From sequence record PZ445429.1: 64,000 nucleotides of DNA; one strand, given 5' to 3'. Source of the stretch: a phage. This document shows positions 8,972-64,000 of the stretch, piece by piece; positions within the stretch are counted from its first letter, which is position 1, and every line of letters begins with the position of its first letter. The notes under the pieces were generated by a model. The model was not told where the DNA came from and made no database searches. It saw only the letters and a program-made list of their open reading frames with translations. The position numbers were made by a program, and so were the translations under genes.

Positions 8972-9550
8972 ATGACAGCCATAGTAGCATTTAAATATAA
9001 AGATAAAGTATACTTAGCTGGTGATCGTATGGGTTCTAATGGCTATACGAAACTGCTGGTTAAAAATCCGAAAGTATTCAAAATCTCTGATGATTTGTAC
9101 TTCGGATACACTAGTTCCTTCTACATGGGACAATTACTAGAGCATAGCTTTACTGTACCACCACGTTTAGCAGATATTTCTGATGATAAATATTTATATA
9201 CGGAAATAGTACCTAAATTACGTGATATGTTTAACCAGAAAGATTTTGGCGAAAAGAAAAATGAAAAATATGCTGAACCTAATCTGGGACAATTTATTAT
9301 GCTCTACAAAGGAAGAATCTTTATTTTCCAATCTAATGCTTCTATTCTAGAAGTTGAATATGCCGGTGTAGGCTGTGGAGGAGAAGATGTACTTTCCAGT
9401 ATTCGTACAGGTTTAGCTATTGCGGATTGTCGAGCCACAGATTTAGATGTAGATGATATATTTGAAATCATTGATCTGGCTTTTACGCATTGTGCAGATT
9501 ATATGTGTGGTGTATCTTCTCAACATGATGTTTTAGTAATTGGAGAATAA
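8972..9550 (+). CDS. Ntn-hydrolase, HslV/proteasome-beta-like (putative)
   Basis: N-terminal M-TAIVAFKYKDKVYLAGDRMGS parallels HslV TTIVSVRRNGHVVIAGDGQ (Thr1 nucleophile after Met removal); RBS GAAGGA. Confidence 0.4.
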   Translation: MTAIVAFKYKDKVYLAGDRMGSNGYTKLLVKNPKVFKISDDLYFGYTSSFYMGQLLEHSFTVPPRLADISDDKYLYTEIVPKLRDMFNQKDFGEKKNEKYAEPNLGQFIMLYKGRIFIFQSNASILEVEYAGVGCGGEDVLSSIRTGLAIADCRATDLDVDDIFEIIDLAFTHCADYMCGVSSQHDVLVIGE

Positions 9551-9552
9551 AT

Positions 9553-9822
9553 ATGTCTATTCTTTTATCTGCTTTAGAAGCAAAACAAAATACTATTGCT
9601 AGCATTAAAAAGGAAGTAATTGACCTAGAATCACTTATTGCCGTAGAGATTGACAAAGCTATTAAAGATAAAGAATTTAATTGTCACATCCAGGGATTAA
9701 CTGAATACTCAGAAAACGCTAGAAATAGCGTCATGCAAAAACTTAGCAAACTAGGTTATGTTGTAGAAGCTAAGTATGAACAGCGTGAAGGTTTTTGGCT
9801 TGAAATTGATTGGAGCAAATAA
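9553..9822 (+). CDS. hypothetical protein (89 aa)
   Basis: ORF with RBS, no motif recognised. Confidence 0.45.
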   Translation: MSILLSALEAKQNTIASIKKEVIDLESLIAVEIDKAIKDKEFNCHIQGLTEYSENARNSVMQKLSKLGYVVEAKYEQREGFWLEIDWSK

Positions 9823-10298
9823 TGTCGGTTTTCCACATATATACAGATGGTGCATGTAAAGGCAATCCTGGTTTAGGTGCGTGGGGATTCGTTGTCTATA
9901 ATGATAATGATGATCGTATTGGCTCTAAATCTGGCTTCAGCCCTAAAACTACTAATAACGAAATGGAACTTACTGCAATTGTAGAAGTTCTTCGTTGGTC
10001 TACTAAGAAAGATAATCGTCCAGTAATTATCTACACTGATTCTGCTTACTGCAAAAATGGTATGGAAAGCTGGATGTGGTCTTGGCAGAAGAAAGGCTGG
10101 AAGAAGGGAGATGGTGAAACTCCTCTTAATCTAGAACTCTGGCAAGAAGCATTTAAACTAACTCAACAGTATATTAACTTCCATGATACCAATCCAACCT
10201 TTGTTAAGGTTAAAGGTCACTCAGGTATTCGTGGTAATGAAGAAGTTGATGCTCTATGCAATACTGTAATTACTGAGCAAGAACTTGCTGAGATGTAA
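9822..10298 (+). CDS. rnhA: ribonuclease H
   Basis: YTDGACKGNPGLGAWG ... TNNEMELTAIVEVL ... YTDSAYCKNGM ... VKGHSGIRGNEEVDAL matches RNase HI catalytic DEDD pattern; start at ATG 9822 after RBS GGAG. Confidence 0.85.
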   Translation: MSVFHIYTDGACKGNPGLGAWGFVVYNDNDDRIGSKSGFSPKTTNNEMELTAIVEVLRWSTKKDNRPVIIYTDSAYCKNGMESWMWSWQKKGWKKGDGETPLNLELWQEAFKLTQQYINFHDTNPTFVKVKGHSGIRGNEEVDALCNTVITEQELAEM

Positions 10299-22288: not shown

Positions 22289-22382
22289 GGAAGATTAACC
22301 CTAAAGGTAAGGGAGCTGTTTGCTAAACAGCCAGTAACTGTGGATACACGGTGTGCCAGTTCGAATCTGGCATCTTCCTCCA
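22289..22382 (+). tRNA. tRNA-Ser (anticodon GCU), type II
   Basis: acceptor GGAAGAU/AUCUUCC, anticodon loop UUGCUAA, long variable arm, T-loop UUCGAAU, CCA. Confidence 0.65.
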
Positions 22383-47424: not shown

Positions 47425-47609
47425 TGGAAACATTACTTCTTATATTACTAGGCGTGTCACTCCTGACAATCCTGGGGCTGATACTGATTTGCAGTCGCCT
47501 TAACGTTAAGAATCTAGAATTAAATAGTGAAAATGAAATTCTTAACCGAGAAATTAAACAACATAATATCGCAGCTCGTAAGCTGTTAGATAAACTGGAG
47601 AATAGATAA
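47424..47609 (+). CDS. membrane protein (61 aa)
   Basis: N-terminal TM helix. Confidence 0.4.
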   Translation: METLLLILLGVSLLTILGLILICSRLNVKNLELNSENEILNREIKQHNIAARKLLDKLENR

Positions 47610-48220
47610 TGTTTACACAACAAACCATTAAAGTAGTAGCAGATCATGAACTCGACACATGGGATTACAGCTTTAAAGATCTGACTGCTACAGTACAGTT
47701 TAAATCTATGCAACTGTCGTTTTTGCACACTGATCTTCAAGGTTGCAAGGAATTTCAGGCTAAGCTCATGAATGCTCGTGCTATCTTTGGCACGGCTCGT
47801 ATCCCGGCTGATAATCTGATTAATACACTAATCGATGCTGGATACAAACTCGTGAAGACTGAGGTGAATCGCCCTAGTACTCCAGTGACTATTCGGGATC
47901 CGTGGCAGTCAGGGCCAATCGCAATGCTGAATAATTCTGATAAAAGATTAATGTCGGATATGCACAATGTTCCTTGTGGTGGCGTGGTAAGCAATACGCA
48001 ATCATATAAGTTTGGGGAAGCATCTAGCGTAGACGAGTGGAATAAAGCTGGCGTTGCAATGATGGGCTTTGCAAAAGATCGCGGAGCACAAGAAGACTCC
48101 GGAGTTTCTAGGAACTCATACACAATTCGTTTGAGCAATCCTAGCAAAGAAGGTGAGCTTGAAGAAATGTTAACGAAAGTATTCGAAGCTATTGATGCAG
48201 ATAAGGCTAGAGGTCGTTAA
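47609..48220 (+). CDS. hypothetical protein (203 aa)
   Basis: coupled ORF. Confidence 0.5.
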   Translation: MFTQQTIKVVADHELDTWDYSFKDLTATVQFKSMQLSFLHTDLQGCKEFQAKLMNARAIFGTARIPADNLINTLIDAGYKLVKTEVNRPSTPVTIRDPWQSGPIAMLNNSDKRLMSDMHNVPCGGVVSNTQSYKFGEASSVDEWNKAGVAMMGFAKDRGAQEDSGVSRNSYTIRLSNPSKEGELEEMLTKVFEAIDADKARGR

Positions 48221-49110
48221 TGGGATTTTATAGTAATAGAAAGCCGAAAGGTGTAGTTGGTAAATTCGCGGTGGAAGAGAGACCTTTTCCACCGGTCGAT
48301 GTAGAGAAACTACGTGAACTTCTAGAAATGCTAGAAGGTTGCCATGAACGTTGTTACTCTGAGCTTTCTTTAAACGAGAAACGTGTTGTTGAGATGTTCT
48401 GTATTCGGTCAGCTAGAACAGTTAGAGGTACTTCTCCAAAAGATGAAGTAAAAGAGTACAGAGTTCTTGTGATGCATGCTTGGGCACAACGTTTTGCAGT
48501 TCATTCACTTCAGGAATGGTTTAATCTTCCAGCATATAAAGATTTCCATGTTTATGAAGATGAAGTTATGAATTATAATGAGTTGTACGGTTTGTCATTT
48601 AAAAAGACAGGCTCACCAATGCATGATGCACTCAACTCATTCCCTGATCATTATCTTCCAGTTCGTGAATACAGAGATCGTGAAGGAAATAAACCTTGCT
48701 TCACTATATGGAATAAGTCTAAGACAATATCTGATCTAGATAATTATTGGTTCCGCACAAAAGAAGGATTCCTAGGAACAGAACCTTTACCTAAGGATCT
48801 CAAGCCTATCCTTCCACCTGTGAAACCTAAGCATGAAGTAACGATTGCTATTAATAGAATAATTCTAGGAGCAGATGATCTTACCAAACAAATCGCCGCA
48901 GTTATTGCAGTTCTGTTTGAAGGTACAAAATCTTCTACACGTTATGAGAAGCTAACTGATAACAAATTGCAGATACCTAACGAGTTGTACGAGAGTTCAT
49001 GTAAGATCTATGATAACTTCAGTAAAGTAGATTACCCTGTGAGATCCCTAGGAGAACTCATGGAGTATGCGGAGATGGGGATGAAAGGAAACCTCATGTT
49101 CGATGAATAA
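48220..49110 (+). CDS. hypothetical protein (296 aa); last early-region gene before repeat field
   Basis: coupled ORF, ATGA overlap with previous. Confidence 0.5.
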   Translation: MGFYSNRKPKGVVGKFAVEERPFPPVDVEKLRELLEMLEGCHERCYSELSLNEKRVVEMFCIRSARTVRGTSPKDEVKEYRVLVMHAWAQRFAVHSLQEWFNLPAYKDFHVYEDEVMNYNELYGLSFKKTGSPMHDALNSFPDHYLPVREYRDREGNKPCFTIWNKSKTISDLDNYWFRTKEGFLGTEPLPKDLKPILPPVKPKHEVTIAINRIILGADDLTKQIAAVIAVLFEGTKSSTRYEKLTDNKLQIPNELYESSCKIYDNFSKVDYPVRSLGELMEYAEMGMKGNLMFDE

Positions 49111-49117
49111 ACTCTAC

Positions 49118-49146
49118 TTGACGTTATGATTTCTGCATGTTATAAT
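49118..49146 (+). promoter_or_regulatory. strong sigma70-type promoter TTGACG-N17-TATAAT with no ORF downstream
   Basis: near-consensus hexamers; next 1.5 kb has no credible ORF. Confidence 0.5.
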
Positions 49147-49505
49147 AACTCTATGAAATAACATAGAATAAAGAGATCCACCCGGATACGGATGGTGGAT
49201 GGGAAACTTCTATTTCCCCCGTAGCTCGTCGGAGGGCTAGGGAAATCTTCAGAAGTTTTGTACCATCTCACGCAATTCGTATCCCAGGGGTGGAACATCT
49301 CTCACAATCCTTGAGGATCTTATACTTAAATTAAAGTTAAAACTTTTGACCACATAATTCACATTCAAGATGATACACTTGTTGCCGCCGCTCTTCCTAG
49401 GATGGCACAACACTTTCTAGTAGACTCCTAAGTTTCTAGGAAAACCCTGTCGTATTTGCCCATGTTATAGGGCAGTTTCTCCTGTTCCTAGAAACTCCAG
49501 CAATA

Positions 49506-49577
49506 GGCGGTTTAATACAGGGCGGTTTAATACAGGGCGGTTTAATACAGGGCGGTTATGGGGAGGGCGGTTATTTC
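49506..49577. repeat. 15-bp tandem direct repeat GGGCGGTTTAATACA x3 plus degenerate copies
   Basis: three exact head-to-tail copies followed by GGGCGGTTATG and GGGAGGGCGGTTAT. Confidence 0.8.
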
Positions 49578-49615
49578 TAGACAACATTTTTCCAAAACAC
49601 ATTTCTGGATTTTAC

Positions 49616-50217
49616 TGTCGGATTTGCACACTATGTTTCTAGAAATTTATGGTCGGATTTGCACATTGATAGGAGTCTCCAAAGTTTTTAGGAACACTGA
49701 AAATAGCAGCATTATTTCGGGCCGAAGGCCCGTATTTGCCTGAGTTTTTAGAGCCACAGGAATTTTCACTTGTCAAGCGATTTTGCCCCATTTTGCTAAT
49801 AAAATTTCGCTTTATCTCCACTAATCTCAATTCTAGCCAAAACATCCCACATTATCCCCAAAAACGCAGCAAACCGGTGCTGAAGCACCACCACAGCTGC
49901 ACCCTCCATAGTTCCTCCAAAAAACCTCGTCGGATTCGCACTTCTCCCCAAACTCACACAATCATACACCCTCTCATCGAAGTCACAAAAATCTTGTCGG
50001 TTTTGCACACCTTAACACTTGTCGTATTTGCACATATTCTAGTAAATCCAGCTGGATTGCATCGCAGTTGTGGATTGCTGGAGTTTTTAGGAAAATTCAT
50101 TGTCGGATTCGCACATATAAAAAATATTTCCCATCGGATTTGCACACTACCAAAAATTGTCGGATTCGCACATGCACACTGGCACGTAATCCGTGGGGGC
50201 AAATGTCGGATTTGCAC
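49616..50217. repeat. iteron array: at least 9 dispersed copies of TGTCGGATT(T/C)GCACA
   Basis: copies near 49616, 49651, 49926, 49994, 50019, 50101, 50132, 50158, 50203, mostly same orientation, irregular spacing. Confidence 0.75.
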
Positions 50218-50259
50218 AAAAGCGCAGGGCAAAAATGAAAATGCCCTGCCTGCCGAAAT

Positions 50260-50440
50260 GCGAATGATAATGAGATTGATTAGCATTTGAGAAGTTGAAT
50301 GCGAATGAGAATGATTCGCGTTTAGAAAGAGGAATGAGAATGGTTATCATTTAGAAAGCGGAATGAGAACAGTTATCATTTATAGAGTTGAATGCGAATG
50401 AGTCGCATAATGAGAATGATTCGCGTTTAGAAATGGAAGT
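50260..50440. repeat. GAATGAGAATG-type direct repeat family
   Basis: TTGAATGCGAATGAG...AATGATTCGCGTTTAGAAA twice and GGAATGAGAA(T/C)(G/A)GTTATCATTTA twice. Confidence 0.7.
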
Positions 50441-50460
50441 GAGAAACACTGTTATTTAAG

Positions 50461-50543
50461 TTATCAACAGGTTTATTAACAGCACGATTTGACTTGACAA
50501 AATCCTAGCGATTTTGAGGCGTTATCAACAGACTTATTAACAG
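50461..50543. promoter_or_regulatory. cluster of four DnaA-box-like 9-mers
   Basis: TTATCAACA x2 and TTATTAACA x2 (1-2 mismatches to TTATCCACA). Confidence 0.4.
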
Positions 50544-50550
50544 GTTATTC

Positions 50551-50570
50551 TACTGTATAAATATACAGTA
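50551..50570. promoter_or_regulatory. LexA (SOS) box, near-consensus
   Basis: TACTGTATAAATATACAGTA (consensus TACTGTATATATATACAGTA, 1 mismatch). Confidence 0.55.
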
Positions 50571-50955: not shown

Positions 50956-51078
50956 GCCATTGCTCCTAGAATGAGAATGATTATCAATATCATTGTAAAG
51001 CCATTACCAAATCGTAAACGCTGGGAATGTTTCCCAGCGGTATTATTAGATTTATGGCTTTGTGTTTTTCGCCACCAG

Positions 51079-53216: not shown

Positions 53217-54212
53217 TTACTCTGTTTCGGCGCTTTGAGTAAAGGTAGAAATGTCAATGCCTTTTACCATTTCATCGATCATTTCCGCAATGTTGAAACT
53301 CTGTACCATTTCCAACATTGCCGCTTCCATTGCCGCGCCTGCTACCGCTTTAGCTTTCGCATTAGTCGGGGCGTACTGGTCAACCGCTACGCTTAACAGG
53401 TTAGCGATCACTACGCGACCGATCGGCGTATCGATATAACCTTTAATCATAAACGGCGCTTTTTTCGCCGCTACTTTTGTGATTTGAATCAGTGCAATTT
53501 TACCCGCTTCCAATTTAGCAGCGTTTACAACGGCGGATTTATTAGCGGCAACGATAGAAGATACTTTAGACATAATATTTCCTTTATTTTCAGTAGTTTG
53601 CGCATTTGCGCTTGAAGTTTGAGATTGTACAGCCTGTTTTGTTACATTGTCAAGCGGTAAAAGTGTAAATCCAGCGTTTGCAACGTTTGATTCATTCCCA
53701 TACTCTAAATAATCGTTAGGGATCAACATGTTACCGCTAGCGCGTTCAAAACACAATACGCCAGTTGTTTCGATTGCGTCACTATCAGCACCTTTATAAC
53801 TGGATGATAATTCACGCCAGATACTAGATAGTAAATCTTCTACATCGCTGGAATTAATACCATTTACGCGAGTAGCGAAAACCATTTCTTTTTCTTGTAC
53901 ATTGTAACCACGGGCAATATAGCTTTTTTCGTCGTGACCTACAATGATAAAATCAATATCGCTTCCCCGCTGATTTCGCATGATGTGATAGTCACGGTTG
54001 TAAAGCACTAGAACGCGGGTAGGGTCTAGTAATTGTGTGAAATCACTTAAACAATAATGAGTATCATTATTATCTAAAATTTCATCGTGAATCTTTTCGA
54101 TAATAGTAGCCGTATGTTGTACGCTTGCCGCACTACTACCATCTAGCAGGTTGCGCAAACTACCCTTAATAATAGTGGCGTTTGCTGGTACTGCAATTCT
54201 TACAGTAGACAT
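53217..54212 (-). CDS. pre-early cassette protein (331 aa), first gene of minus-strand operon
   Basis: RBS GAGGGGGACAAAGAAATG; palindromic terminator downstream at 53189-53208. Confidence 0.55.
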   Translation of the reverse strand: MSTVRIAVPANATIIKGSLRNLLDGSSAASVQHTATIIEKIHDEILDNNDTHYCLSDFTQLLDPTRVLVLYNRDYHIMRNQRGSDIDFIIVGHDEKSYIARGYNVQEKEMVFATRVNGINSSDVEDLLSSIWRELSSSYKGADSDAIETTGVLCFERASGNMLIPNDYLEYGNESNVANAGFTLLPLDNVTKQAVQSQTSSANAQTTENKGNIMSKVSSIVAANKSAVVNAAKLEAGKIALIQITKVAAKKAPFMIKGYIDTPIGRVVIANLLSVAVDQYAPTNAKAKAVAGAAMEAAMLEMVQSFNIAEMIDEMVKGIDISTFTQSAETE

Positions 54213-54460
54213 TTCTTTGTCCCCCTCGTTAATCGGTGAGTGAATGATATAGATAATTGTTCGCTAGGGGCAAGAAAAAAGAAAAGGTTTTTTATTCCTT
54301 GCCTACTGCCTGTTTTTATGATAGCCGCGCGTTTTCTATTTCTAGCTCTCTGTATGCGTACACAAGGCTTTATTATAATAAGGGTAGCAGCGAGAAAACC
54401 GTTTAGAATGCGTTCTAGGCCGCTTAAATTTGATTGCGGTTGTTACTGCTACCATTCTAC

Positions 54461-54480
54461 CCTGTATATTTATACAGTAG
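54461..54480. promoter_or_regulatory. LexA (SOS) box
   Basis: CCTGTATATTTATACAGTAG, CTGT-N8-ACAG core; ~250 bp upstream of minus-strand operon start 54212. Confidence 0.5.
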
Positions 54481-54487
54481 GATAACC

Positions 54488-54569
54488 TGTGAATAAGTCT
54501 GTGGATAAGTCGCCAAAACGTCGCCTATTGCGTCAAGTTATTTTGTGCTGTGGATAACTTTGTGAATAA
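54488..54569. promoter_or_regulatory. cluster of four DnaA-box-like 9-mers
   Basis: TGTGGATAA x2 (perfect complement of TTATCCACA) and TGTGAATAA x2. Confidence 0.5.
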
Positions 54570-56163: not shown

Positions 56164-56580
56164 ATGTCTAACGTTAAAACCGAAAAAACCGCAAAATTTT
56201 CTTGGAACGAAGAAAACACCGAAAAAGCTGTTTCTATGTATTCTGAAATGGTCGCTAAAAGCGGGATTGAATTTGCAAACAGTGACGGCCTGAAAGAAAT
56301 TGCCGCCGCCGTTGGTGCTGCTAGTCCGGTGTCTGTACGTTCTAAATTGACCAGTGCAAAAGCCTACCAGAAAAGCGACAAGCCGCGTAAAGTTGGCGGC
56401 GGGTCTAGTGTCCGTAAAGCTCACTATGTGCGCGTCATTGCTAAACATGCCATTGATAGCGGCATTGTAAAAGACGCTGACGATCTGGCAAGTCTGGAAA
56501 GTGCAAAACTTGAAACGCTGGAAGCCGTGGCGCAATTGTTAGGCGTAGCGGAGGAAGTGAAACAGGCCGCAGGTGAATAA
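56164..56580 (+). CDS. hypothetical protein (138 aa)
   Basis: RBS GGAGTATTAAATTATG; palindrome terminator 56590-56609. Confidence 0.5.
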   Translation: MSNVKTEKTAKFSWNEENTEKAVSMYSEMVAKSGIEFANSDGLKEIAAAVGAASPVSVRSKLTSAKAYQKSDKPRKVGGGSSVRKAHYVRVIAKHAIDSGIVKDADDLASLESAKLETLEAVAQLLGVAEEVKQAAGE

Positions 56581-56974: not shown

Positions 56975-58639
56975 ATGAATATTTCCGCAGAAAAACAAGC
57001 TCAAATTCTGAAAATGGCCGCAGATTTTAACTTCTACGGTAAGCGTTTACGCGCTACTAAATTGGAAGTTTGCGACGATATTTCAAAAGCTGTTTATGAT
57101 ACGCCGAAACATTCAACCGCAATTTGTGACTGGCTGGAAGCAAATAAGCCAGCGAAACCGAAAGCGGCAAAAGCTGAAAAGGCGATTAAAAATGATGATC
57201 GCCCCGAAGCGGCGGGAATTGTTTCTAGTACCGTTGAACAATGGGAAGTTAAATCCGGTCGCCGTTTTATTCTAACGTCGATTCAAAATAATACTTTCCC
57301 GCATAAAAACTTTTTAGCAAGTCTGGAAAAATTCGCTGAATATTGCGGCGCTGAATTGCTGATTAGTAAATTCATTTATAATAAAAATGGATTCCAGAAC
57401 GGGGAAGGGGCAAACGGTATTAAATACGATCCCGCATTTGATAAATATGTTTGTGATAAAAACGTATTTTTAAATAACCGCCGCTTTGCTTTCATGGCTG
57501 AAATTAACGTTTTACCAACGGCAGATTATCCGCTTTCAGGATTCGCAGAAACCGCCACGGCTTTAAATATCGAAGGTCTGGCAATTGGTCACGCAAAAAT
57601 TACCGCTGAAAGTGTTCCCGCGCTTAAAGGTGAAGTAGTGCGCCGTATGTATTCAACCGGAACGGCTACGCTTAAAAACTACATTCAGCAGAAAGCAGGT
57701 CAAAAAGCTGAGGCTTTACATAATTACGGCGCTTTGCTGGTGGAGTTCGACGACGACGGAGAATTTTATTGCCGCCAGCTTGAAACAATGGATGAAAGCG
57801 GAATGTTCTATGATTTGAATGTTTGCGCTATGCCTACCGGATGTTTTGAAACGTCCGATCATGTTCTAGGCTTGCAATATGGCGATATTCACGCCGAAAA
57901 ACTAGATGATGATTGCGCCGTCGCTTCATGGGCTAGTGAAAACAGCTTGCTTGATATTCTTAAACCGAAATATCAATTTATTCATGATGTGCATGATTTT
58001 ACATCCCGCAATCACCATAACCGCGCAAGTGGTGTATTCCTTGCTAAACAATACGCCGCCGGACGTGATAAAGTTATTGATGATCTTATCGATACGGGTC
58101 GCGTATTAGAGTCTATGGAGCGTGATTTCTCTCAAACAATCATTGTGGAATCTAACCATGATTTAGCTCTTTCACGCTGGCTTGATGATCGTAACGCTAA
58201 CATTAAAGATGATCCCGCAAACGCGGAATTGTATCACCGTCTAAACGCTGCGATTTACGCCGCTATTGCTGAAAAGGATGATACCTTTAACGTGCTAGAT
58301 TACGCCTTGCGGAACGTCGCAGGTTGTGAATTTAACGCTATTTTCCTGACTACTGACCAATCATTTAAAATCGCTGGCATTGAATGCGGCGTACATGGTC
58401 ACAATGGCATTAACGGCAGTCGGGGCAATCCTAAGCAGTTTAAAAAGTTGGGACGCCTTAACACTGGTCACACTCACACGGCTAGCATTTACGGCGGCGT
58501 TTATACCGCTGGCGTTGCTGGTAGTCTCGATATGGGTTACAACGTTGGCGCGTCAAGCTGGACGCAAACGCATTTAATTACATATGCAAACGGTCAACGT
58601 ACCTTGATTGATTTCAAAAATGGCAAATTCTTTGCCTAA
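56975..58639 (+). CDS. A1: A1-like pre-early protein with calcineurin-type metallophosphoesterase/nuclease motifs
   Basis: 554 aa (T5 A1 is ~556 aa); GDIHAEKLD, ESNHDL, GHNG, GHTHTA motifs; followed by A2-like and dmp-like genes. Confidence 0.55.
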   Translation: MNISAEKQAQILKMAADFNFYGKRLRATKLEVCDDISKAVYDTPKHSTAICDWLEANKPAKPKAAKAEKAIKNDDRPEAAGIVSSTVEQWEVKSGRRFILTSIQNNTFPHKNFLASLEKFAEYCGAELLISKFIYNKNGFQNGEGANGIKYDPAFDKYVCDKNVFLNNRRFAFMAEINVLPTADYPLSGFAETATALNIEGLAIGHAKITAESVPALKGEVVRRMYSTGTATLKNYIQQKAGQKAEALHNYGALLVEFDDDGEFYCRQLETMDESGMFYDLNVCAMPTGCFETSDHVLGLQYGDIHAEKLDDDCAVASWASENSLLDILKPKYQFIHDVHDFTSRNHHNRASGVFLAKQYAAGRDKVIDDLIDTGRVLESMERDFSQTIIVESNHDLALSRWLDDRNANIKDDPANAELYHRLNAAIYAAIAEKDDTFNVLDYALRNVAGCEFNAIFLTTDQSFKIAGIECGVHGHNGINGSRGNPKQFKKLGRLNTGHTHTASIYGGVYTAGVAGSLDMGYNVGASSWTQTHLITYANGQRTLIDFKNGKFFA

Positions 58640-59186: not shown

Positions 59187-59921
59187 ATGAATCAAGTTAA
59201 AATGAATATTACCCATAATTTCCCGCATATTTCCCGCGTCATGATTTGGGATCTGGACGGCACAATCATTAATTCTTTCCATCGTGTAGCGCCTTGCTTT
59301 GATGATAACGGGAATTTAAATTTAAATAAGTATTCCCGCGAAGCCTGTAAACATGAATTAATTATGCAGGATTCTTTATTGCCGTTGGTTGAATATATGC
59401 GCCAATGTATGAGTGACGCAAATACATTAAACATTATTTGTACCGCTCGCCTTATGTCTAAAAGCGATTATTTTTATTTACGCAAACAAGGCCTGCGAGG
59501 GCGCGGAAATAGTAATATCCGCGTATTTTCCCGCGATACACTGCATAAATACTTTGAAGCTGATAAGGTTAGCGAAATATACCACAGCAAAGACGCTGTA
59601 TACAAAAGCTATTACTTTGAACTATTTAAACAGCTATATCCGAACGCTGATTTTACGATGATTGATGATCATAAAGGCGTATTATCGGCGGCGGCAAGTG
59701 CTGGGTTCAAAACACTGGACGCCCAAGCCGTTAACGATATCCTATCAATCGGCGTAGCATTGATCGGTGAAACCTTTATTGATGAATCGTTAGATGATGA
59801 TAATGATTATCAATTCCTAGCCGAACGTTTAAAAATGTGTTGGGAAGGTATGACCGAGGAAGAACGCGCGGAATATAGTACCACACCGCAACAATTCATT
59901 GATAAATTAAAAGTTGCATAA
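59187..59921 (+). CDS. dmp: HAD-family 5'-deoxyribonucleotidase (dmp-like)
   Basis: 244 aa; HAD motif I MIWDLDGTIINS; later DD motif. Confidence 0.55.
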   Translation: MNQVKMNITHNFPHISRVMIWDLDGTIINSFHRVAPCFDDNGNLNLNKYSREACKHELIMQDSLLPLVEYMRQCMSDANTLNIICTARLMSKSDYFYLRKQGLRGRGNSNIRVFSRDTLHKYFEADKVSEIYHSKDAVYKSYYFELFKQLYPNADFTMIDDHKGVLSAAASAGFKTLDAQAVNDILSIGVALIGETFIDESLDDDNDYQFLAERLKMCWEGMTEEERAEYSTTPQQFIDKLKVA

Positions 59922-63518: not shown

Positions 63519-64000
63519 ATGGCAAATGATGTATTAGTTCCCGATCTCATGTCTCCTGAGGGCATGGATGTTATTGAAGCCTATTTACAGTGCAGTAGTG
63601 ATGTTCCTGCCGCCGCTCGTAGTCTTGGAATGTCCGAGATTGCATTTCGTGATATAATGAATCGTGGGGAAGTTAAAAACTATCTCAACGATATCTTTAT
63701 GGAAAGTGGCTTCCGTAATCGTGACCGCTTATTCGGAGTTCTTGATGAAGTTATCAAGCGCAAGTTGGAAGAACTCGAAGAAACTGGCATGGGTTCTGAC
63801 CAGGATATCATGGATATTCTCTGGAAGGCGCACAAGATGAAAATGGAAGAAATGAAAATGATGGTAGAACTGGAGAAAGTGAAGGCAGCAGCCCGTACTC
63901 CAGCTAACCAGACTAACATTCAGAATAATATTATTGCTGGAAGTGGTGACGAAAACTATATGAATCTTATTACCGCTCTAGCAGGAGGAGGTAAGAGATA
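63519..64000 (+). CDS. hypothetical protein with N-terminal helix-turn-helix (possible terminase small subunit); 5' part only
   Basis: RBS AAGGAGG then ATG 63519; frame open to window end. Confidence 0.3.

Follow-up and report, generated by a model that had tools for sequence, protein, structure and literature searches.

A one-directional array of 15-bp boxes matching T5 direct repeat D spans the right edge of the terminal repeat in an Epseptimavirus-like phage

The window analysed here, a stretch of 64,000 nt of phage DNA read on one strand from 5' to 3' (record PZ445429.1), carries a field of short direct repeats (hereafter boxes) in non-coding DNA that separates the pre-early genes from the first early gene; in Demerecviridae this is the right-hand end of the terminal repeat (TR). 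To judge by its sequence, the phage is T5-like, a member of Demerecviridae and Epseptimavirus-like. The 1.6-kb box region matches T5-like phage genomes in 468 megablast and 541 blastn records, the top matches being 'Campylobacter phage A148' (96%; a record classed as Epseptimavirus) and Salmonella and E. coli Epseptimavirus phages (~93%). The A148 record (MG065642.1, UNVERIFIED and unannotated) is a typical Epseptimavirus-type T5-like genome whose host label is doubtful. Homologues of A1, A2, dmp and T5.018/019 flank the box region, whose nearest relatives are Epseptimavirus genomes, and the map direction is the reverse of the standard T5 map. The gene order (A2, A1, dmp, TerS and others) indicates that the window runs from early genes to the TR junction, through one copy of the repeat and into right-end unique genes; the TR is present in a collapsed-repeat arrangement.

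The box is a 15-bp sequence, TGTCGGATT(T/C)GCACA, found in ten co-oriented + strand copies at 49448-50218, with successive copies starting 168, 35, 277, 67, 25, 81, 31, 26 and 46 bp apart (Table 1). A sequence-only reading of the same DNA had described at least nine boxes at 49616-50217, irregularly spaced and mostly in one orientation, in an ORF-free (open reading frame-free) region that is not a CRISPR array, and had proposed a genome-wide scan for the box. This description survives closer inspection: nine copies lie in that interval, the last ending at 50218, a tenth and weaker copy starts at 49448, and all ten share one strand. Scanning the 64-kb window with the pattern TGTCGGATTYGCACA and allowing <=2 mismatches gave 13 matches against 0.18 expected, ten of them in the field, and none of 100 shuffles reached 13 matches, while a position-weight scan of the window added no boxes on the opposite strand. 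A CRISPR array was rejected, as the unit is only 15 bp and the spacing varies from 25 to 277 bp, versus regular repeats of ~28-37 bp with spacers of similar length. The absence of genes is also essentially right. Across 14 phages, the mechanical ORFs in the field have diversities of 0.178/0.185/0.189 at codon positions 1/2/3, compared with 0.154/0.108/0.256 for a real neighbouring gene, and curated T5 records annotate no coding sequence across the equivalent stretch. The field as coding sequence was rejected, codon periodicity being absent from every mechanical ORF, unlike the real gene.

Compared by sequence, spacing and order, the boxes are copies 1-9 of the T5 'direct repeat D' (DRD) in "Repeat Region 3", at the TR and injection-stop region. 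The T5 record AY587007 annotates 'direct repeat D copy 1-9', of 13-15 bp each, at 9672, 9718, 9744, 9775, 9856, 9881, 10225, 10260 and 10397. The T5 spacings of 46/26/31/81/25 bp (DRD1-6) and 35 bp (DRD7-8) equal those in the window exactly, matching the boxes at 50204, 50158, 50132, 50101, 50020 and 49995 and those at 49651 and 49616, respectively. The T5 sequence at the annotated coordinates (TGTCGGATTTGCACA / ...TTCGCACA) is the identical 15-bp unit, for which AAATCTTGTCGGATTTGCACA is a representative oligonucleotide, and the T5 copies share with the window their strand relative to the genome, their order and their position between pre-early and early genes. The window differs from T5 in being from an Epseptimavirus-like rather than a Tequintavirus phage, in having one extra field copy (49928) and a second intragenic copy (47715), and in its more degenerate variants of DRD5, DRD6 and DRD9. 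RefSeq NC_005859 (T5) labels 9140-10149 as 'injection stop signal (iss)', so that the suggested position at a T5-type injection stop or TR boundary is borne out by comparison with T5, with the field lying in the annotated iss region and the TR boundary lying inside the field. What the sequence-only reading overlooked is that DRD is already annotated, that the box is close to a DnaA box (8/9) and that the literature puts the stop signal proper on the TR-internal side of the boxes. The box family is therefore already known and the repeat itself is a rediscovery. Its description was traced, through a preprint on T5 repeats, to work of 1987 and the genome paper of 2005. In the Davison preprint, the stop signal consists of IRD'-spacer-IRC' and DRE repeats, internal to the TR relative to the boxes, and DRD is given without a role; papers of 2023 and 2026 state that functional studies of these repeats are lacking, recent work (2020-2026) credits the repeats of this region with no tested function, and searching full texts for the box sequence brought up nothing relevant.

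The right TR boundary divides the field into three boxes outside and seven inside the repeat (six inside in T5). Its placement between 49750 and 49751 follows from the right end of T5 DNA (...CTGTGGCTC / TAAAAACTCAG, with TAAAAACTCAG from the left-repeat context), from the presence of the T5 junction, within a base or two, in 8 of the 11 T5-like contigs of IMG/VR with both repeats, and from the identical sequence in the window; the boundary given by PhageTerm for phage Sw2 agrees. My1-like contigs likewise have an inner array, the boundary and then an outer array. An exact boundary match failed in Klebsiella-type contigs, in which we infer from the box positions that the boundary falls between two sub-arrays. 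No comparable non-coding array was found at the left repeat boundary. Together with a hairpin, the right boundary sits within the block of peak conservation in the region (49703-49810), compared with only 0.2-0.5 in flanking coding DNA. A second dispersed repeat, AGTTTYTAGRAA, occurs at 49431, 49485 (inverted), 49683, 49743 and 50082, with the copy at 49743 spanning the TR boundary, and the related AGTTTCTAGGAGA stands immediately before the T5 nick at 22336.

Table 1 Features of the box region and flanking genes in the window.
Feature	Position	Strand	Remarks
T5.019 homologue	47609 onwards; ORF 47609-48220		By homology
Intragenic box TGTCGTTTTTGCACA	47715-47729	+	Second intragenic box, in ORF 47609-48220; lineage-specific, in 2 of 18 relatives
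Intragenic box TGTCGGATATGCACA	47952-47966	+	In T5.019 homologue; kept in 18 of 18 distinct relatives
T5.018 homologue	48283-48831 (homology match); ORF 48220-49110		By homology
Sigma-70 promoter, near-consensus	49118-49146	+	TTGACG, 17 bases, TATAAT with TG; 11/12; conserved in T5
Box TGTCGTATTTGCCCA	49448-49462	+	T5 DRD copy 9 (T5 10397); outside TR; weakest and least conserved T5-equivalent copy; conservation 0.60
Box TGTCGGATTTGCACA	49616-49630	+	T5 DRD copy 8; outside TR; conservation 0.99
Box GGTCGGATTTGCACA	49651-49665	+	T5 DRD copy 7; ends 85 bp outside TR boundary; conservation 0.95
GC-rich hairpin GGGCCGAAGGCCC, terminator-like	49719-49731	+	Just outside TR boundary; annotated terminator in phage Sw2
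Right TR boundary	49750-49751		Unique ...CTGAGTTTTTA / GAGCCACAGG... repeat; repeat extends ~10.3 kb rightwards from 49751
Box CGTCGGATTCGCACT	49928-49942	+	Extra lineage-specific copy, not in T5; conservation 0.35
Box TGTCGGTTTTGCACA	49995-50009	+	T5 DRD copy 6; starts 244 bp inside TR; 3' 9-mer is the exact DnaA consensus
Box TGTCGTATTTGCACA	50020-50034	+	T5 DRD copy 5
Box TGTCGGATTCGCACA	50101-50115	+	T5 DRD copy 4
Box CATCGGATTTGCACA	50132-50146	+	T5 DRD copy 3
Box TGTCGGATTCGCACA	50158-50172	+	T5 DRD copy 2
Counterpart of T5 '7.9%' major single-strand nick site	50186-50229	+	GTAATCC, 11 bases, DRD1 box, AAA, GCGCAGGG; nick expected between 50221 and 50222
Box TGTCGGATTTGCACA	50204-50218	+	T5 DRD copy 1; within spacer of T5-type nick site; conservation 0.99
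A2 homologue	56185-56577		By homology
A1 homologue	56975-58636		By homology
dmp homologue	59187-59918		By homology
TerS homologue	63519-63998		By homology

Across 14 phages with 56-80% identity to the window, conservation is higher in the boxes (0.83) than in the spacers (0.69), with DRD1, DRD7 and DRD8 near-invariant (0.95-0.99). A logo built from 145 distinct sites reads AAA-nnn-[T/C/G][G/A]TCGGATT[T/C]GCACA and holds ~2 bits per position at TCGGAT and GCAC, with weak positions 1-2 and strong positions 14-15; a predicted reader protein would recognise the 13-bp core TCGGATTYGCACA. Among boxes scoring >=17 in ~35 T5-like contigs, co-orientation within each locus is complete (344/344), and in T5, A148 and Vibrio phage Achelous it holds across the whole genome. 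Considered as a Chi/KOPS-type signal, however, this polarity comes from 3-5 loci per genome, giving p ~0.03 over independent loci by our own estimate. The DRD7/8 pair with its 35-bp spacing recurs wherever the locus reaches far enough, and box positions and spacings are kept across genera. In IMG/VR, where relatives were retrieved by a DNA-pattern scan (the neighbouring 296-aa protein as query gave only one locus), clusters of exact matches were confined to T5-like contigs of 103-123 kb, and lone matches elsewhere were at chance level.

Boxes also occur outside the field, in few places and always in the same orientation. Whole-genome scans of T5 and A148 revealed no more than three or four loci with boxes, which share one strand: the field, the T5.019 gene and a tandem pair in D13, to which A148 adds the start of rnh. 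In the window, a box at 9823 likewise overlaps the start codon of rnh (RNase H) and is probably there by chance. The T5.019 box, by comparison, forms an island of conservation, with a diversity of 0.04 at its core against 0.31-0.38 in its flanks. D13 is the gene for an SbcC-like recombination nuclease subunit, and its box pair, which is antisense to the gene and encodes NVQILQVQIRQ, has a third-codon-position diversity of 0.028 against a gene mean of 0.126 (rank 14 of 247 windows). Vibrio T5-like phages (Ermolyevavirinae), whose D13 is ~40% identical, have two D13 boxes of the form TGTCGGTTTTGNGCT within ~15 codons of the same alignment position at most, in a different frame and encoding TKPKTD and NKLKTD. 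Retention of the pair in place but in a different frame points to selection acting at the level of the DNA, not of the protein. The pair is absent at a further three divergent D13 loci, among them the My1-like locus. In Achelous, three field-type boxes (TCGGATTYGCACC) occupy the corresponding non-coding junction and five variants lie in the replication module (8/8 on the same strand). Vibrio phage phi 3 carries four boxes, spaced 25-29 bp apart, essentially within the 79 bp that separate the DNA polymerase gene from the gene upstream of the helicase. The copies in the Vibrio replication module are antisense to their genes.

One box also lies within a nick signal. Based on the T5 annotation and an alignment of the four T5 nick sites, the innermost box of the field (DRD1) occupies the spacer of the counterpart of the T5 7.9% site. 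The T5 sites (NC_005859, 9748, 22336, 39746 and 78573) share the form CAYNYGTAAY... followed by 27-29 bases, with the nick before GCGCRGG, and the 7.9% site is the only one of these four major sites with a DRD box in its spacer. A nick-type composite of GTAATC, a box pair, CAG and GCGCAGG is found in Achelous at ~120470-120515, and the D13 box pair lies ~360 nt from the T5 64.8% nick. The boxes as a component of the nick signal were rejected, since the 18.5% and 32.6% sites are without a box even at low score, indicating that the nicking enzyme does not need them.

The excess conservation of the boxes over their spacers, their co-orientation and their positional constancy argue for a protein-binding array, and we place even confidence in the combined proposal that the boxes are DRD and form such an array tied to the repeat junction. 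The field would then be a polar, non-coding array of sites for a sequence-specific, most probably phage-encoded DNA-binding protein, straddling the right edge of the ~10-kb TR beside the injection-stop region. As a more tentative step, we suggest that the array may serve as a recognition field when termini are formed or packaging is initiated. The small terminase subunit or a partner would bind the boxes on both sides of the concatemer cut that makes the right genome end, with packaging then proceeding leftwards into the repeat. This packaging model is possible rather than probable and is ranked first because the array surrounds the right-end cut, the left boundary is without an array and the polarity fits a one-way process. 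Repeated motifs flank the terminus-generating cut in both T5-type and My1-like records. Terminase arrays at cut sites include the P1 pac hexamers, SPP1 pacL/pacR, lambda cosB and the T7 SRL/SRR repeat arrays by its TR. The DRD field resembles these in its short repeated motifs on both sides of a genome-end site and in being polar and non-coding, but differs in that its boxes stand 85-470 bp away from the cut and not next to it, in that the terminase genes are distant, and in that extra copies of the box occur elsewhere in the genome.

Several points weigh against this interpretation. The packaging model leaves the T5.019 box, the D13 pair and the four-box array of phi 3 unexplained, and the field, at 770 bp, exceeds typical terminase recognition sites. 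The position of the boundary between sub-arrays could be inherited, as the junction sequences are homologous in all lineages compared. The direction of T5 packaging is our own inference, made without citation and resting on the assumption that the first-injected (left) end is packaged last. The literature gives DRD no role and reports no binding experiment for any candidate protein. Choosing a reader by conservation did not discriminate, as the T5 and Achelous versions of A2, TerS, D5 and T5.108 all share 41-48% identity. A broader reading is held with similar reserve: DRD may be a genome-wide polar signal across Demerecviridae, through which a putative phage reader would govern a one-directional DNA transaction. 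This possibility draws on the co-orientation of boxes in E. coli, Salmonella, Klebsiella and Vibrio phages and on the D13 copies kept in two subfamilies in different frames; candidate transactions are packaging initiation, the direction of rolling-circle replication or a motor for second-step transfer.

The last of these candidates leads to an alternative that we regard as doubtful, in which A2, together with A1, binds the DRD boxes and second-step transfer restarts by a ratchet or pull, or by an A1/A2 cut as in Davison's model. The field begins just past the estimated shear point of first-step-transfer DNA (T5 9618, compared with DRD1 at 9672), in or next to the iss, and a polar array could be explained by the one-way entry of DNA. 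Both proteins are encoded in the window, A2 is described in the literature as an essential pre-early DNA-binding dimer without a known target, and A2 and the boxes co-occur in phages from E. coli to Vibrio. However, if the shear-point estimate is right, the boxes would be outside the cytoplasm during the pause. In addition, the asymmetric conservation of the box, with its weak positions 1-2 and strong positions 14-15, suits a symmetric dimer site poorly, and neither the copies in D13 and the replication module nor the presence of the TR boundary inside the array is accounted for.

A role in replication is slightly less likely than transfer restart. Here the boxes would be origin iterons, or an element for origin control or fork polarity, read for example by the UL9-like helicase D2/T5.108 or by D5. 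The sequence-only reading had proposed either origin iterons or a binding field for a phage protein; the latter is favoured here and the former is a possible but unproven alternative. P1 oriR/incA, R6K and pSC101 are examples of origin iterons with auxiliary iteron arrays. Such iterons are like the DRD field in being irregularly spaced direct repeats of 15-22 bp that adjoin AT-rich repeats and DnaA boxes, and in having distant extra arrays. The corresponding neighbours of the field are AT-rich 29-35 bp repeats (50234-50458) and DnaA-type pairs (50460-50543), a candidate oriC-like layout. The co-oriented Vibrio boxes in the replication module, including the phi 3 array, and the D13 pair kept in two subfamilies are also consistent with a replication element. 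T5.108, which has a match to Pfam Herpes_ori_bp (E = 1.3e-7), is a proposed initiator in the literature, and multiple T5 origins have been seen by electron microscopy. On the other hand, electron-microscopy work cited by Davison maps the origins near the genome centre. No initiator gene adjoins the field, the window is without a T5.108 homologue and T5.108 lies 49 kb away in T5; no iterons were found upstream of this initiator gene. The DnaA-like half of the box is lost in the Vibrio variants. A likeness to the herpes UL9 box also failed to stand up. This box is GTTCGCAC, with the Box-I core CGTTCGCAC. DRD shares TTCGCAC with GTTCGCAC, and an exact CGTTCGCAC precedes the UL9-like helicase gene T5.108 by ~260 bp (NC_005859 59280-59288; A148 MG065642 94139), with flanks conserved between T5 and A148. 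As GTTCGCAC is no more frequent than chance predicts (2-3 per genome) and Achelous lacks the site near this gene, a UL9 origin box was treated as coincidence.

The statement that the boxes do not match the DnaA consensus needs qualification. The 3' nine bases of the box (ATTTGCACA) agree with TTWTNCACA at 8/9 positions, a closeness reached by only 1.7% of random 15-mers, and the variant at 49995 (TTTTGCACA) is an exact match. Nine of the ten field boxes are nevertheless inexact, the main forms having one mismatch (ATTTGCACA) or two (ATTCGCACA). In one alternative, the boxes would be weak sites for DnaA, enlarging the DnaA cluster of the iss, and would either tether the entering DNA to membrane-bound DnaA or titrate DnaA. 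Accepted DnaA-type boxes are indeed close by. Four consensus boxes on the - strand at 54488-54569 form two pairs 3 bp apart (54488/54500 and 54549/54561), corresponding to the T5 IRC-spacer-IRD, and their inverted partner on the + strand at 50460-50543 contains the DnaA variants TTATCAACA and TTATTAACA, as Davison described for T5-like phages. DRD boxes are clustered and co-directed with these + strand pairs, and Davison's model invokes DnaA in this region. Compared with the DnaA boxes of oriC, however, DRD has six further conserved bases, and its conservation is not confined to the 9-mer, as the TCGG upstream of it holds 1.6-2.0 bits per position and is as conserved as GCAC. The invariant T4 position of the DnaA box is C in about a quarter of the distinct box sequences, giving two mismatches, and the Vibrio variants TGTCGGTTTTGNGCT have three, keeping TGTCGGWTTTG and losing CACA. 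These three features make a phage-encoded reader more likely than DnaA for the putative box-binding protein, and we consider binding by DnaA very improbable.

Least credible of all is a reading of the boxes as an RNA-level repeat transcribed from the promoter at 49118-49146 (for example, a protein sponge), as coding sequence or as selfish repeat debris, since the near-consensus promoter does point into the region and the field boxes are all sense to it, but the terminator-like hairpin precedes most of them, the copies in D13 and in the Vibrio replication module run antisense to their genes, substitutions lack codon periodicity, no Rfam match better than E = 0.3 was found for a known structured RNA, and box positions and spacings are kept across genera.

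Several further elements surround the field. The promoter at 49118-49146 lies directly after the last early gene and is directed into the non-coding region. A 15-bp tandem repeat, GGCGGTTTAATACAG, follows at 49491-49580 with three full copies and degenerate ones; its copy number varies between phages, and alignment conservation falls to 0.07-0.2 at 49508-49537 within this stretch. On the repeat side, a LexA/SOS box (TACTGTATAAATATACAGTA, 50551-50570) has one mismatch to the consensus, with none expected by chance, and corresponds to T5 'palindrome D', next to the DnaA-type box pairs; a second LexA-type copy, weaker with three mismatches, lies in the second repeat region (54460-54479). The Fur-box-like pattern GATAATGATAATCATTATC, with <=3 mismatches allowed, has 7 matches against 0.03 expected, including sites at 50973-50991, 54053-54071, 59793-59817 and 9897-9915, of which that at 59793 falls inside the coding region of dmp and may be a coincidence. 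The 29-35 bp AATGAGAATGATT... repeats beside the field also resemble degenerate Fur boxes. These Fur-like sites deserve attention because the receptor of T5 is the iron-regulated FhuA.

Two questions have stood open for decades: how T5 halts and resumes DNA injection, and how its 10-kb TR is formed. While the boxes themselves were on record, their polarity, the position of the TR boundary within the array and the conserved intragenic copies are additions to that record. The 13-bp core, the polarity, the boundary position, the intragenic copies and the evidence against DnaA narrow the experiments through which these questions can be approached.

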